This document shows, piece by piece, positions 35,622 to 38,942 of a stretch of DNA of 64,000 nucleotides (the first letter of the stretch is position 1; every line of letters begins with the position of its first letter). The notes under the pieces were generated by a model that worked only from the letters and a program-made list of their open reading frames with translations, was not told the DNA's origin and did not search any database. The translations under genes and the position numbers were made by a program. Location of the stretch: contig OY969694.1 of the NCBI GenBank assembly GCA_963701955.1, positions 2,291,224 to 2,355,223 on the forward strand, read 5' to 3'. The DNA is from an uncultured Acidimicrobiaceae bacterium. GTDB taxonomy: Bacteria > Actinomycetota > Acidimicrobiia > Acidimicrobiales > RAAP-2.

Positions 35622-38600
35622 ATGGCCGCTTCGGGAGCCAGTCGTCGTCCCGGGACCGTCGGCAGCTCAGCTCGGACGGGTCCGCCTCAAGGGAGCGAGG
35701 AGCTGTCACGTGGGACCGGGGTAAAGGCACCCACGGCACCTTCGGGAGCCTCAACCAAGGCATCGGGCACGACCCGAACACCCAAGGCGGCCTCGGCGCG
35801 GCCTGCGGCCACGCCGGCAGCAGCAACGACACCTCCCAACCCGCCCGGTGGCACGACCGGCAAGCCCACGAGTGTCATGGATGGCGGGACGGAGAGTGAC
35901 GCCATCGTCAACCTCCAGAATGCCGCCCCCACTGTTTCGCGCATCCATCCTCTTCCCGGCATGTTGCGGTCGACCGGGTTCGCCTTGAGCGGTGGAGGAG
36001 CAAAGGGATCCTTCGAGGTTGGGGCGTGCAAGTACCTGATGCAGGCATCGGGGATCCGTCCCGACGTCATCACATGCACTTCGGTTGGGGCGGTGAACGG
36101 GATGAAGCTGGCCGAAGGCGAGGGTCCGCCGTTCCAGTTCCAGGGACAGACGTTCCACCGGGGTCTCGACGGACTGGAGCAGATCTGGTTGACGAGGTTG
36201 ACATCGCCCAGCGACATGTACTCTCCGAGCGAGGCCTTGAAGGCGCTTCCCATCGACTACTACACGGCCCTGCCCCTGGAGATTTCGCAGCTGGCCAACG
36301 ACCTTCTGGGTAAAGCGCTGTCGCAGGTCGCGGCGGCCTCTCCCTACCTGATCCTGCTGGGGACGATCGGACTCCCGTTCGTGAACCTCGGCCCGGTCGA
36401 GAGTGAGCTCCAGCAGGTCGTCGCCCTTCTCGAGGGCTCGTCCTTCTACGTGCTGGACCCCATCGCCAATCTCTACGACGACGGGTCCATCGACAAGATC
36501 CTCGTCGCCGAGTCGGGCATTGAGCTCCTGTTCGCCACCGTTGGACTCCGCAGCGGCGACCTGTGTTACGTAAGGCTTGTCGGCCGAGACGGCCACGGGA
36601 ACCTGGTGGGAGACCTGGTGGACCGCGACTCGGTCGCAGAGCCCATCCCGTTCCCCGGCGCTATCGGGTATCCGATCGACATGAAGGCGGGCATGCTGGC
36701 CTCGGCCGCCGCTCCGCTCATGTTCGAACCGCAGCGCCTGCTGCCCGATTTCCCGGAGAACCTCGAGATCTTCACGGACGGAGGCGTGCGGGAGCTGGTT
36801 CCCGTTCAGGCGGCGATAGATCGCGGATGCAAGCGGGTGTTCGCCCTCGACTGCAACGCTCCCTACCCAGCGGCGAGCAGTCAGGCGCCTCATCAGGCCC
36901 AGGCTCCCAATGGGATGTTCGGGATCGCGCTCGACGTCTTGGCGATCCTGCTCGACGAGATCGACCGGGAGAACGTCGTCGCGCCCTCCCCGGATGTATC
37001 TCTCCTGTGGCACGTCCAGCCGCTCTTCGAGGTGGAGGGCGACCTCGAGATCGACACGGGCGCGATTCGGGTGAATATCGACTACGGCCATCTGTGTGCC
37101 TTCGACTGCGTCGACGGGTCCGTACGTAGCGCTGCACGGCGCGCGTTCCTACGCTCCACGGGCGCCCAGATCGCCGTGGCCCGCCGTGACATCTCGGATC
37201 GTGAGCGGTGCCTGCGGTGGGTGGTTGACCTGTGGACCCAGATCGGCAAGGGGCAGATCAACAAAGGCACGAGCACACACGACGTCGTGACGACCCTCGA
37301 CTACCACCGGTTCGCTGACGGGTCGGACCAGGATCTCGATGGGCGTGTGGCCAACCTCACCGCGGATCTCGACTTCGGGGCAGGGTTCACCCCGTACTGG
37401 GACTACACCAACCTAGTGATGGTCCACTACCTCGACGAGGTGCTGTCCAACAAACAGCCTCCGGCGGTCGACGCAGGAACGGCTGTCGGATTCCTTCAGG
37501 AGATGAAGTGCCGGCTCCAGCCCCTCTACGAGACGCGCACCGTCGTGGCCGGGCCCAGGTCGATAGAACCGTCCCCCGACGACCCCACGACACCCGATCA
37601 GCCCTGGCTCCGCTGGGAGCGTCCCGACTCACAGGCCTTCTTCGGTGACGTATGGCCCACCGGGCCCACCTGCGACCCCACACTCGACAATGAGACGCTG
37701 TACTCCGCGGCTTCCGTTCAGGTCGAGGCGAAGGGCACCTCGGGTTGGGCGGTTCAGTCTGGCCCCCAAGGATCCCGCGGCTACTTCAGCCCGATCCAGC
37801 TCCTCGTCCCGCAGGACAAGAAGCTCGTCCACGTCACCGGCGAATTCGGGGTGAAGCCCTGGGGATCGTCGTGGGCCGCGTCCGCCGGCGACACCTGGCA
37901 AACAGGGTGGCAGTCAAATGCTTGGAGTCCGGTGGACTTGGGAGTCCAAGCAAGCTCCGTGTCCTGTTGCCTTCTGGCCGACTCCCCGGTCGGATCCCTG
38001 GCCGCAGTGGTGCGAGTGGCGTCGACCGACGGGACGAGTGATTCCCTCCTCGAGCTTGCCTACGACGGCCAGGCACAGACTTGGTCGGTTCTCGGTCCGG
38101 TCAGCGTCTCGGGGCAGACGATCAGTGGGGTCACGGGGAACCCGGTGCTCTTTCAGTGCTCCTTCGCCCAGCAAGAGACCCTCGAGCTCCTCATCCCCGT
38201 GAACGACACTGTGCAGCACCTGTCGAGGGACCTGAGCGGCGGCGGCTGGGTGCCGCGCTCGGCGGGAGTCTCATTCGCCCCGCCCAGCAATCCGCCTCCG
38301 CCTCAGCCGACGTCAAAGCTGGGACCCGTGTCGGCGCCCGTTGCTCAGGCCCCGCGATCGATCACCTGCATTCAGGGAAACTACGGAGCGCCGGCAAATC
38401 TCGAAGCCGTGGTGGGGCTGGGCCCCATCACCGGGACTGGCGTCGACTCGTTGGAATCCTGGTACTACGACTCATGGAGGGAGGGGTGGTTCCGCAACGG
38501 CGCGATCGTCCCGACGGACGGGCCCATCTCTGGCATCAACGGGGATGCCGTCCTCTTCCAGAGCAAGATCGGAAGTCGGGGGGACTTCGAGCTGATGGTC

Positions 38601-38942
38601 CCCTCAGGCGATTCGATCATCCACCTGTTCCGGGACAACGACGGGGCCCGAACCTGGCGGCGCCGGGGCAGCGGCGTCGTCTATGCGGGCGGGACGCTCA
38701 CCGGGAATGGTCTCCACGGGCCGCAGGTCCTCGAGAAGGCGACTCCGGTGGCGATTTCCGCTTGGCAGGGCATCGACGGCGTGGCCGGCTCCCCCAACCT
38801 CGAAGCGATCATCCGCCTCGAGCCACCCGCCCTCGAGCAGCAGAGCGGCCAGTTCTTCGAGGCGCTGTGGTTCGATCCGGCAAACTCCGCCTGGAAGTCC
38901 GCAGGGCAAGTGATCGTCGACGGCTCACCCCTGACCGCCTGA
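35622..38942 (+). CDS. Patatin-like phospholipase fused to a long C-terminal propeller-like repeat region (1106 aa)
   Basis: GGAAGGAGGAG lies 4 nt before ATG at 35622. The N-terminal ~110 aa are low-complexity Ala/Pro/Thr/Lys. Patatin motifs are SGGGAKG (aa 123-129), TSVGA (GxSxG type, aa 152-156) and TDGGV (catalytic Asp, aa 385-389). The C-terminal ~330 aa hold alternating blade-like repeats. Confidence 0.85.
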   Translation: MAASGASRRPGTVGSSARTGPPQGSEELSRGTGVKAPTAPSGASTKASGTTRTPKAASARPAATPAAATTPPNPPGGTTGKPTSVMDGGTESDAIVNLQNAAPTVSRIHPLPGMLRSTGFALSGGGAKGSFEVGACKYLMQASGIRPDVITCTSVGAVNGMKLAEGEGPPFQFQGQTFHRGLDGLEQIWLTRLTSPSDMYSPSEALKALPIDYYTALPLEISQLANDLLGKALSQVAAASPYLILLGTIGLPFVNLGPVESELQQVVALLEGSSFYVLDPIANLYDDGSIDKILVAESGIELLFATVGLRSGDLCYVRLVGRDGHGNLVGDLVDRDSVAEPIPFPGAIGYPIDMKAGMLASAAAPLMFEPQRLLPDFPENLEIFTDGGVRELVPVQAAIDRGCKRVFALDCNAPYPAASSQAPHQAQAPNGMFGIALDVLAILLDEIDRENVVAPSPDVSLLWHVQPLFEVEGDLEIDTGAIRVNIDYGHLCAFDCVDGSVRSAARRAFLRSTGAQIAVARRDISDRERCLRWVVDLWTQIGKGQINKGTSTHDVVTTLDYHRFADGSDQDLDGRVANLTADLDFGAGFTPYWDYTNLVMVHYLDEVLSNKQPPAVDAGTAVGFLQEMKCRLQPLYETRTVVAGPRSIEPSPDDPTTPDQPWLRWERPDSQAFFGDVWPTGPTCDPTLDNETLYSAASVQVEAKGTSGWAVQSGPQGSRGYFSPIQLLVPQDKKLVHVTGEFGVKPWGSSWAASAGDTWQTGWQSNAWSPVDLGVQASSVSCCLLADSPVGSLAAVVRVASTDGTSDSLLELAYDGQAQTWSVLGPVSVSGQTISGVTGNPVLFQCSFAQQETLELLIPVNDTVQHLSRDLSGGGWVPRSAGVSFAPPSNPPPPQPTSKLGPVSAPVAQAPRSITCIQGNYGAPANLEAVVGLGPITGTGVDSLESWYYDSWREGWFRNGAIVPTDGPISGINGDAVLFQSKIGSRGDFELMVPSGDSIIHLFRDNDGARTWRRRGSGVVYAGGTLTGNGLHGPQVLEKATPVAISAWQGIDGVAGSPNLEAIIRLEPPALEQQSGQFFEALWFDPANSAWKSAGQVIVDGSPLTA

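Follow-up and report, generated by a model that had tools for sequence, protein, structure and literature searches.

A patatin-like protein with a predicted six-bladed propeller tail, possibly a ligand-targeted lipase, in an uncultured Acidimicrobiaceae bacterium

We describe a single gene in a 64,000-nucleotide stretch of DNA (the window) from an uncultured Acidimicrobiaceae bacterium (contig OY969694.1, positions 2,291,224 to 2,355,223). The gene lies at 35622..38942 on the + strand and is a complete coding sequence for 1106 amino acids (aa) plus a stop codon, as delimited from the list of open reading frames (ORFs), the translation and a check of the start site. Its product joins a patatin-like catalytic module to a predicted beta-propeller, and may be a lipase that is directed to its target by the propeller. 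The frame is open from 35379 to the stop at 38942 (+), and the ATG at 35622 was accepted as the start. The Shine-Dalgarno sequence GGAAGGAGGAGCG precedes this ATG, and the spacing from GGAAGGAGG to the ATG is seven bases. Both the start codon and the Shine-Dalgarno sequence are unchanged in two relatives (loci L081 and L086) with 81-83% DNA identity. Because the ATG, the Shine-Dalgarno sequence and about 110 nucleotides (nt) upstream are kept in these two loci, whose flanks are otherwise unrelated, we accept 35622-38942 as the gene. The 1106-aa gene proposed at this position by an initial annotation, which was made from the sequence of the window alone, is thus a real ORF with a conserved start. 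We also considered whether the N-terminal 113 aa might be untranslated, and rejected this, since neither the ATG nor the Shine-Dalgarno sequence varies, and the indels seen across three lineages all preserve the open frame. Public assemblies contain a protein identical to the window protein (P0001), and a member of its cluster at no less than 90% identity (P0186) is encoded on a 3.1-Mb contig.

The region immediately upstream appears to belong to the same unit. Homology with L081 and L086 begins at about 35511 and the flanks beyond are unrelated, which delimits a conserved leader/promoter region at 35511..35621 (+) that includes the GGAGG Shine-Dalgarno sequence. In the window, L081 and L086 this leader contains the invariant GCCTCTGGACTGC, with a possible anti-Shine-Dalgarno CCUCU. 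In the leader sequence GCCUCUGGACUGC, RNAalifold pairs the CCUCU with the GGAGG Shine-Dalgarno, with no covariation among only three sequences. This pairing suggests a possible translational control. The leader has no Rfam match, and the Rfam and tRNA scans of the window were both empty. Because the tRNA scan found nothing, there is no tRNA-linked island boundary in the window. A promoter and terminator scan of 35300-39300 likewise returned nothing.

The protein has four parts, namely a disordered segment (aa 1-113), the patatin module (aa 114-525), a helical region (aa 526-690) and the six-bladed propeller (aa 691-1106). An AlphaFold2 model of the full length, built from nine sequences, has a predicted local distance difference test score (pLDDT) of 68 and a predicted template modelling score (pTM) of 0.69. 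It comprises a disordered stretch at aa 1-115, an alpha/beta patatin core at aa 117-410, helices to about aa 700 and a beta-rich C-terminus. PF01734 is the sole Pfam match in the full protein, and NCBIfam gives no match.

The patatin-like catalytic module (35961..37196, +), delimited with PF01734, phmmer and Foldseek, is longer than the Pfam model. The match to PF01734 (Patatin) covers aa 121-399 and scores 58 bits (E=2e-15), the gathering cut-off being 27.7. The phmmer ranges to relatives with other architectures stop at aa 496-534 and the conserved module reaches about aa 525, so that the first ~115 aa after the PF01734 match belong to the conserved catalytic module. The oxyanion-hole loop SGGGAKG (aa 123-129; 35988..36008, +) contains GGGAKG at aa 124-129, which has the form G-G-G-x-[KR]-G, and nine full-length homologues show no variation at its residues G124, G125, G126, K128 and G129. 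The nucleophile elbow CTSVG (aa 152-156; 36075..36089, +), with Ser154, is a variant of G-x-S-x-G in which Cys replaces the first Gly. In the alignment of the nine homologues T153, S154, V155 and G156 of the motif CTSVGA (aa 152-157) are invariant, and the first position of the elbow is Cys or Gly (Gly in P0007, P0011 and P0012). The catalytic Asp motif TDGGV (aa 385-389; 36774..36788, +) carries Asp386, and D386, G387, G388, V389 and R390 are invariant.

Thus, the complete patatin catalytic set of the initial annotation (SGGGAKG, the nucleophile in TSVGA and the Asp in TDGGV) is present where it had been placed, together with the PF01734 match that it expected. The same annotation had asked whether the catalytic Ser and Asp might vary among orthologues, which would speak against its interpretation; both are invariant in the nine homologues. 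By all of these sequence features the protein is a bona fide member of the patatin family, and we infer that it would act as a lipid acyl hydrolase. The patatin fold is interrupted by a helical, partly hydrophobic insertion at aa 217-271 (36270..36434, +), which in the model is a candidate lid or interfacial loop. Its helices (aa 217-253 and 257-271) are modelled at a low pLDDT of 49-54. The highest 19-residue hydropathy of the protein is found here, at about aa 235, and its value of 1.79 is below the level of a transmembrane (TM) segment. A lid role for these helices may be supposed from the model. Relatives of the ~400-aa patatin module that have no propeller carry ASH/DUF1573/HYDIN Ig-like arrays, B_lectin, CBM_5_12, LGFP or PF26607. 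Since such modules stand in the place of the propeller, binding or adhesion domains are habitual companions of the patatin module, placed before or after it.

The C-terminal part (37692..38939, +) is predicted from an AlphaFold2 model, Foldseek and a sequence profile to be a six-bladed beta-propeller in which two blade types, A and B, alternate. The model of aa 690-1106, built from 42 aligned propeller sequences, has a pLDDT of 83.6 and a pTM of 0.86, and its 24 strands form six four-stranded blades, as in a six-bladed fold. The array of blade-like repeats that had been noticed in the sequence is therefore now a confident propeller model, and we regard the fold class as firmly predicted. The type A blade has the consensus QS.FG..G(N/D)FELxVP.G..L.H..RDND....W and the type B blade IQ(S/G)N.G.P.NLEAVxR....L....D....W.GP. 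The two types can also be written as QS.FG..GNFELVVP.G..L.HY.RDND....W (A) and LIQSN.G.PGNLE.V.R....L....D....W.GP (B).

The six blades, all placed from the model and the sequence, differ in how much of these motifs they hold. Blade 1 (aa 705-764; 37734..37913, +; strands at model residues 21-75) is a degenerate type A with TGEF in place of RDND, and blade 2 (aa 777-826; 37950..38099, +) is a degenerate type B in which QSN and NLE are lost. Blade 3 (aa 835-878; 38124..38255, +) keeps type A in part, as FQCSF...LELLIP...H..RD. The type B motif is kept in blade 4 (aa 909-961; 38346..38504, +; CIQGNYGAPANLEAVV), where the alignment shows Q918, G922, L927, E928, A929 and V931 to be invariant. Blade 5 (aa 977-1014; 38550..38663, +) has the full type A consensus (LFQSKIGSRGDFELMVPSGDSIIHLFRDNDGARTW), and blade 6 (aa 1041-1096; 38742..38909, +) again keeps the type B motif (WQG...SPNLEAIIR...WFD...W).

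Two relations connect this propeller with lectins. With the propeller model as query, Foldseek ranks monomeric RSL, a six-bladed fucose lectin, first (E 3e-7, template modelling score TMt 0.66); LGI1-EPTP, sialidases and the propellers of glycoside hydrolase families GH93 and GH145 come after it, and the top matches are mostly six-bladed. Against viral predicted structures, Foldseek found only generic propellers, which told us nothing further. The other relation is through DUF346 (PF03984). Homologues of PLL, a fucose-binding Photorhabdus lectin, are characterised by a DUF346 domain (PMC10481521). The proteins P0041 and P0043, in which a papain domain is followed by the same repeat, pass the DUF346 threshold (P0041 with 32.8 bits against a cut-off of 22, in four stretches), and P0083 reaches 15.2 bits, below the cut-off. 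A profile of the window propeller matches P0041 at E=1e-17. Because P0041 matches both this profile and DUF346, the link of the window propeller to DUF346 and PLL is transitive. A search of PDB sequences with P0041 gave no meaningful match, PLL and RSL included. The assignment of the propeller as a lectin, drawn from one structural top match and one transitive Pfam relation, is therefore a lead and not a proof.

Between the two folded modules lies the helical middle region (aa 526-690; 37197..37691, +), which from the model and phmmer appears to be specific to the family and contains the motifs DISDRERC, NLTxDLD and PDQPWLRWE. Helices are modelled in and around it at aa 504-542, 552-559, 572-583, 618-643 and 668-698. 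It has no Pfam, NCBIfam or PDB sequence match, and only P0010 and P0011 have part of it in common with the window protein. The ratio of nonsynonymous to synonymous substitution rates (dN/dS) against the two closest loci, L081 and L086, is 0.11-0.14 for the patatin module, 0.14-0.15 for the middle region and 0.11-0.15 for the propeller. The three folded parts are thus maintained, since a dN/dS of 0.11-0.15 indicates purifying selection.

The N-terminal extension (aa 1-113; 35622..35960, +) is different. It is rich in Ala, Pro, Thr, Gly and Ser (A19 P16 T16 G15 S13 R7 K4), is modelled at a pLDDT of 25-42 and occurs only in the closest relatives, being missing from P0004-P0008 and P0012. In L081 and L086 its frame is open, its sequence is poorly conserved and its dN/dS is 0.6-1.1. 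It is a disordered segment defined by composition only, which evolves nearly neutrally. A crude hydropathy scan of the window protein found no signal-peptide-like or TM-like segment. The initial annotation had described the N-terminal ~110 aa as low-complexity Ala/Pro/Thr/Lys without a signal peptide or TM segment; this holds except for the Lys, of which there are only four, with Gly and Ser abundant instead. It had also placed ~220 aa without nucleotide-binding motifs after the catalytic region and proposed that there is no nucleoside triphosphatase (NTPase) switch. The Walker A motif [AG]xxxxGK[ST] is indeed absent from the whole protein and neither Pfam nor NCBIfam finds an NTPase domain, but the stretch past the Pfam patatin match is ~290 aa long.

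The propeller has a much wider distribution than the fusion. A search of 1.84 billion representative proteins with the C-terminal profile gave matches to 1078 clusters at E<=1e-3, of which 654 remain at E<=1e-10 and 169 at E<=1e-30; of the best 150 matches, only 6 are patatin fusions. A Pfam scan for partner domains covered 61 of the longer members. It found DUF4185, astacin, subtilase S8, sortilin/BNR, LamG, alpha-L-fucosidase and thiol-activated cytolysin, as well as EEP phosphoesterase, M43, the kumamolisin pro-domain, peptidase A4, fn3/Big and galactose/glyoxal-oxidase domains. Papain C1 and an M6-like protease are further partners, and plasmids of Bacillus and Paenibacillus encode fusions of the propeller with M12 and matrixin proteases. 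In many members the propeller stands alone, with six A-type blades in ~300 aa. No Pfam model covers the repeat; at E<=1 the stand-alone propellers give only noise and a sub-threshold DUF346 match. About 20% of the propeller proteins that start with Met have a signal-peptide-like N-terminus by a crude test, which indicates that part of the family, at least, uses the propeller extracellularly. Judged from these partner domains, the propeller is a promiscuous accessory module, found mainly on degradative enzymes and a cytolysin.

Two observations on other members of the family can be added. On a 665-kb plasmid of Bacillus sp. BR3 (NZ_CP152438.1; L087 4540-7155), the 871-aa WP_342762004.1, named an 'M12 family metallopeptidase', ends in the same A/B-blade propeller. 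It begins at the astacin catalytic domain without a signal peptide or pro-peptide, contains a second, uncharacterised repeat (SPALVxHxxQLLLSHTGEDDHIYVA, ~6 copies), and its gene adjoins a transposase. Further, P0050, P0051, P0053 and P0112 share an N-terminal domain of ~150 aa (MxxRxxxxxxxNxTxxxLxxxxxxLDHGEWTDPWxPP) with no signal peptide and no Pfam domain noted, which may be another effector or membrane-binding head of this modular family.

The full patatin-propeller architecture is rare, with about a dozen clusters among 5.8 billion proteins. The identity of the homologues to the window protein extends from 100% (P0001) to 26-30% (P0011, P0012). Because P0012 appears to come from a low-GC organism, the fusion seems to be old and to cross lineages. 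All patatins found by a contig search seeded on the generic motifs KLAEG and GGGxK were unrelated, and most came from Bacteroidota.

In the window, the gene is transcribed divergently from a penicillin-binding protein (PBP) gene (33864-35369, -) with the Pfam domains PF00905 and PF21922. The spacer between them is exactly 252 nt with a GC content of 0.595, which confirms the divergent PBP gene, class B in the initial annotation, and the lower-GC spacer. The initial annotation also placed the gene directly at the edge of a low-GC block. GC does fall downstream of 39 kb (0.59-0.63 beyond 39000), but the GC content at third codon positions (GC3) of the patatin gene is 0.83, equal to that of the PBP gene, as against 0.67-0.77 in the lower-GC block, so that in composition the gene groups with its upstream neighbours. 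The block itself (38943-47500, GC 0.625) contains genes for MST/DinB, HAD, GNAT, a methyltransferase, a 497-aa protein without a Pfam match and a TPR protein. The conspecific contigs L090 and L091 keep the block, which resembles an older accessory insertion and whose composition sets it apart from the patatin gene. These two contigs also keep the upstream order of amidohydrolase, YbjQ paralogues, sulfotransferase, alpha/beta-hydrolase, zinc-dependent alcohol dehydrogenase, PBP and patatin, and the order MST/DinB, HAD, GNAT, methyltransferase ... HD after it.

Outside the species, the surroundings are different at each locus. In L081 and L086 (81-87% protein identity) homology runs from 35511 to within ~10 nt of the stop and the rest differs, so that the gene is carried as a single-gene unit in unrelated contexts. 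The more distant homologues of L082, L083, L085 and L089 are also in unrelated neighbourhoods. No neighbour gene recurs in the six loci, and no immunity-like, secretion-system, cyclase or NTPase gene is found there; the downstream neighbours are variously MST/DinB, a 504-aa epimerase-like protein, GFA, an 83-aa ORF and a helicase. The gene is thus not a clade-syntenic housekeeping lipase, a possibility that the initial annotation had named as a test of its proposal. The copies of L081 and L086 each contain one frameshift (at ~9996, window ~37540, and at ~8822, window ~38510). As a result, the L081 gene is called as split, with a 464-aa 'stand-alone' product (P0037), and the L086 gene as truncated (P0002). 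In both copies the two halves stay open and under purifying selection. Long-read assembly errors and very recent inactivation are equally likely explanations. That these copies are decaying pseudogenes was considered and rejected as unproven, since the halves are constrained and the contigs look like long-read metagenome assemblies.

Several features of the surroundings are recorded as side observations. Near the homologues of L085 (58-1626) and L086 (322-3132) there are genes with a mobile or defence flavour, namely a reverse transcriptase (RVT_1), AAA_12/UvrD_C_2 fragments, an RNase_H_2-domain protein and Fic, none of which recurs between loci. Upstream in the window, at 27207-29065 (-), and in L090 at 754-3286, there are three tandem YbjQ_1 paralogues (putative heavy-metal-binding) of ~265-300 aa each, compared with ~100 aa for the canonical domain. 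A sulfotransferase gene (PF13469) comes after this run, and a 720-aa ORF at 29677-31839 (+) is probably in part a shadow of that minus-strand gene. Further upstream, at 21638-26304 (-), lies an amidohydrolase cluster with two Amidohydro_2 genes and one Amidohydro_3 gene, where GC drops from ~0.69 to 0.62-0.66.

We tentatively favor the view, which we hold to be somewhat short of an even chance, that the protein is a modular ligand-targeted, probably glycan-targeted, lipolytic enzyme. In this enzyme the patatin module, with its Ser154-Asp386 dyad and GGGxKG oxyanion hole, would hydrolyse the acyl esters of phospholipids or lysophospholipids. The propeller would be a binding module, most probably for carbohydrate or another surface molecule, which keeps the enzyme on its target surface. 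The helical middle region would connect lipase and propeller, and together with the hydrophobic insertion it would probably form a lid or interfacial element. The likely target would be a foreign or extracellular membrane, such as that of prey, a competitor, a grazer or a host, and the targeting would be analogous to that of lectin-enzyme 'chimerolectin' toxins and of hydrolases with carbohydrate-binding modules. We favor this reading because the propeller joins degradative enzymes and a cytolysin elsewhere, RSL is the top structural match, the DUF346/PLL link exists and sister patatins carry binding modules. The initial annotation had offered a glycan-targeted lipase beside a sensor-effector resembling NOD-like receptors (NLRs); the former fits the evidence best, while the latter is not supported.

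Several points weigh against a targeted lipase. On the binding side, the repeat consensus is largely lost in blades 1-3 of the window protein and kept only in blades 4-6. The RSL match is modest (11-13% identity, root-mean-square deviation 5-8 A), and other six-bladed propellers score nearly as well. The window protein itself has no DUF346 (E<=1) or lectin Pfam match, PDB sequence searches with the propeller profiles, including a profile of six A blades, were empty, and no ligand is known for any member of the propeller family. On the side of export, ~80% of the propeller proteins have no signal-peptide-like N-terminus by the crude test. A crude hydropathy and charge scan found no signal peptide in any of ten patatin-propeller proteins, in most of which the patatin fold begins 5-30 residues from the N-terminus, and no secretion-system or chaperone gene is linked at the examined loci. 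Export is the main weakness, since the patatin-propeller family has neither a signal peptide nor a linked secretion route. Lysis or vesicles could release the protein, it could use an unrecognised export pathway, or it could act inside the cell.

A cytoplasmic role is conceivable precisely because the whole patatin-propeller family is without signal peptides, and it can be imagined in more than one way. The protein could be an intracellular lipase for lipid remodelling or storage lipids, which acts on the cell's own phospholipids or acylglycerols, with the propeller as a regulatory or localisation domain that binds a protein or metabolite. We think this rather unlikely. The absence of a signal peptide or TM segment in all family members agrees with such a lipase, as do the GC3 of 0.83, shared with the neighbouring core-like PBP gene, and the stable synteny within the species (L090, L091). 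Lipid-related genes also lie near some homologues (PAP2, DAGK, a phosphoesterase and AMP-binding near that of L083; acyl-CoA dehydrogenase, AMP-binding and thiolase near L086; a DAGAT-type acyltransferase near L081). However, these neighbours are not the same from one locus to the next and genes of this kind are frequent in high-GC soil bacteria, such a role sits poorly with so rare a family and with a locus that is non-syntenic even at 81-87% protein identity, and elsewhere the propeller is mostly attached to enzymes of extracellular type and to a cytolysin. Secretion by a specialised system is the least probable of the readings we weighed. A contact-dependent antibacterial phospholipase effector of the type VI lipase effector (Tle) type, for which the propeller would be a delivery or receptor-binding domain, would agree with a lipase toxin without a Sec signal, as is typical of type VI or type VII secretion system cargo, and with the variable genomic context. 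Its expected companions are missing: there is no conserved adjacent small immunity gene, the downstream neighbours being all different, and no VgrG, PAAR, Hcp, Esx or LXG within +/-10 kb at six loci.

The defence role suggested by the initial annotation would require a single-chain immune sensor-effector, in which, without any NTPase switch, a cytoplasmic propeller senses a molecule of a phage or other invader and frees the patatin to break down the membrane of its own cell (abortive infection). We judge this quite improbable. PADLOC gave only a partial generic phospholipase-effector match to the gene (E=0.004, ~30 residues, aa 358-389), only a generic HD match among ten window neighbours and only a generic subtilase in 2/61 propeller fusions, so that no defence system was detected in any of them. 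A CD-NTase cyclase was found neither by Pfam in 20 ORFs (21.6-50.8 kb), nor by PADLOC in the ten neighbours, nor at the six homologous loci, and no NTPase, other signalling partner or conserved neighbourhood is present in the six contexts. The lack of a signal peptide and the presence of CapE and CapV, patatin effectors of cyclic-oligonucleotide-based antiphage signalling systems (CBASS), among the fold and sequence matches are consistent with defence. So are the sporadic distribution, the sharing of one propeller among many enzymatic 'heads', and the carriage of the gene as a unit by itself in surroundings that are unrelated and in part look mobile, with RVT_1 in L085 and with AAA_12/UvrD_C_2 fragments in both L081 and L086, to which L086 adds RNase_H_2 and Fic. 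Nevertheless, the nearest solved structure is a lectin, tblastn found no match in 50,697 phage genomes, and the partners of the propeller are typical secreted enzymes, some with pro-domains, CBM- or Ig-type modules and signal peptides. Because the propeller is a binding-type module common to many hydrolases, which is what the initial annotation had said would count against its idea, the sensor loses further support. A broader version can be stated, in which the propeller is a cytoplasmic ligand sensor that gates whichever enzyme is attached, and the family of more than 1000 clusters is an unrecognised class of NTPase-less single-chain sensor-effectors for immunity or suicide. The heads would then be lipase, protease, nuclease-like and pore-forming domains, mostly without signal peptides, and the patatin fusion could be the membrane-destroying version. 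This is a speculation to which we give only about one chance in ten.

The targeted-lipase reading can be compared with systems that are already known. PlpD of Pseudomonas aeruginosa, ExoU and VipD of Legionella share the patatin fold with a Ser-Asp dyad and the GGGxK/RG oxyanion loop. Among solved structures PlpD matches best, both by fold (5fya, TMt 0.71) and by sequence (E 1.2e-6, first ~50 residues only). ExoU and VipD, like the window protein, have a helical region after the catalytic domain, and VipD is among the Foldseek matches. However, PlpD is exported through its own POTRA domain and beta-barrel (type Vd), while the window protein lacks a barrel and no secretion system is linked to it. 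ExoU, a type III effector, and VipD, a type IV effector, depend on eukaryotic cofactors for their activation. None of the three has the six-bladed propeller C-terminus. The CBASS effectors CapV and CapE share the patatin fold (CapE, 9ion, TMt 0.60-0.63; weak CapV sequence matches) and are also without a signal peptide. They are single-domain proteins of ~300-360 aa, activated by cyclic nucleotides and encoded beside a CD-NTase, whereas the window protein is ~700 residues longer and has no cyclase. As neither a cyclase nor a model match was found, it falls outside the CBASS effectors of the CapV/CapE type. Fungal NLRs with an N-terminal patatin have the architecture patatin-NACHT/NB-ARC-WD40/ANK/TPR (PMC4986451). 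They share with the window protein a patatin head and a repeat tail in one chain, but the latter has no central nucleotide-binding oligomerisation domain (NOD) or NTPase, and its tail is not WD40, ANK or TPR. As the NTPase is absent, the protein is not an NLR or another member of the signal transduction ATPases with numerous domains (STAND).

For the propeller, the RSL/AAL fucose lectins are the closest comparison, as they likewise have alternating blade pairs and a six-fold pseudo-symmetry. They are ~270 aa long compared with 417 aa for the window propeller, whose blades are ~50-70 aa with long loops, and membership by sequence fails, with no Pfam fungal-fucose-lectin match and no PDB sequence match. 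Of the Photorhabdus lectins PLL and PHL, PLL is seven-bladed and stand-alone, and is not among the top 50 Foldseek matches or the PDB sequence matches. In overall logic the protein resembles chimerolectin-type molecules such as the Marasmius oreades agglutinin, which joins a lectin to a papain-like protease, and matrix metalloproteases with a hemopexin propeller. They have the same enzymatic or toxic head and multivalent propeller or lectin tail, though the fold families differ. The parallel extends to other bacteria, where the same propeller is found on papain, astacin and matrixin heads. Many members of the propeller family have no signal peptide, like the cytoplasmic fungal defence lectins. 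Full-text literature searches brought up no description of a patatin-propeller fusion.

Patatin-like lipases recur as toxins, virulence factors and abortive-infection effectors, and it is the way in which they are targeted and switched on that differs. What is new here is a modular patatin lipase with an accessory propeller whose repeat is not covered by Pfam models. If the propeller senses an intracellular ligand, this would be a new minimal design of a sensor-effector. If instead it is a lectin, the family would represent a large untapped source of multivalent glycan binders and of bacterial 'chimerolectin' enzymes, many of which have no classical export signal, and the ligand of the propeller would explain what the attached enzymes attack. 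In either case, it is the propeller family, more than the single patatin gene, that is of practical value.

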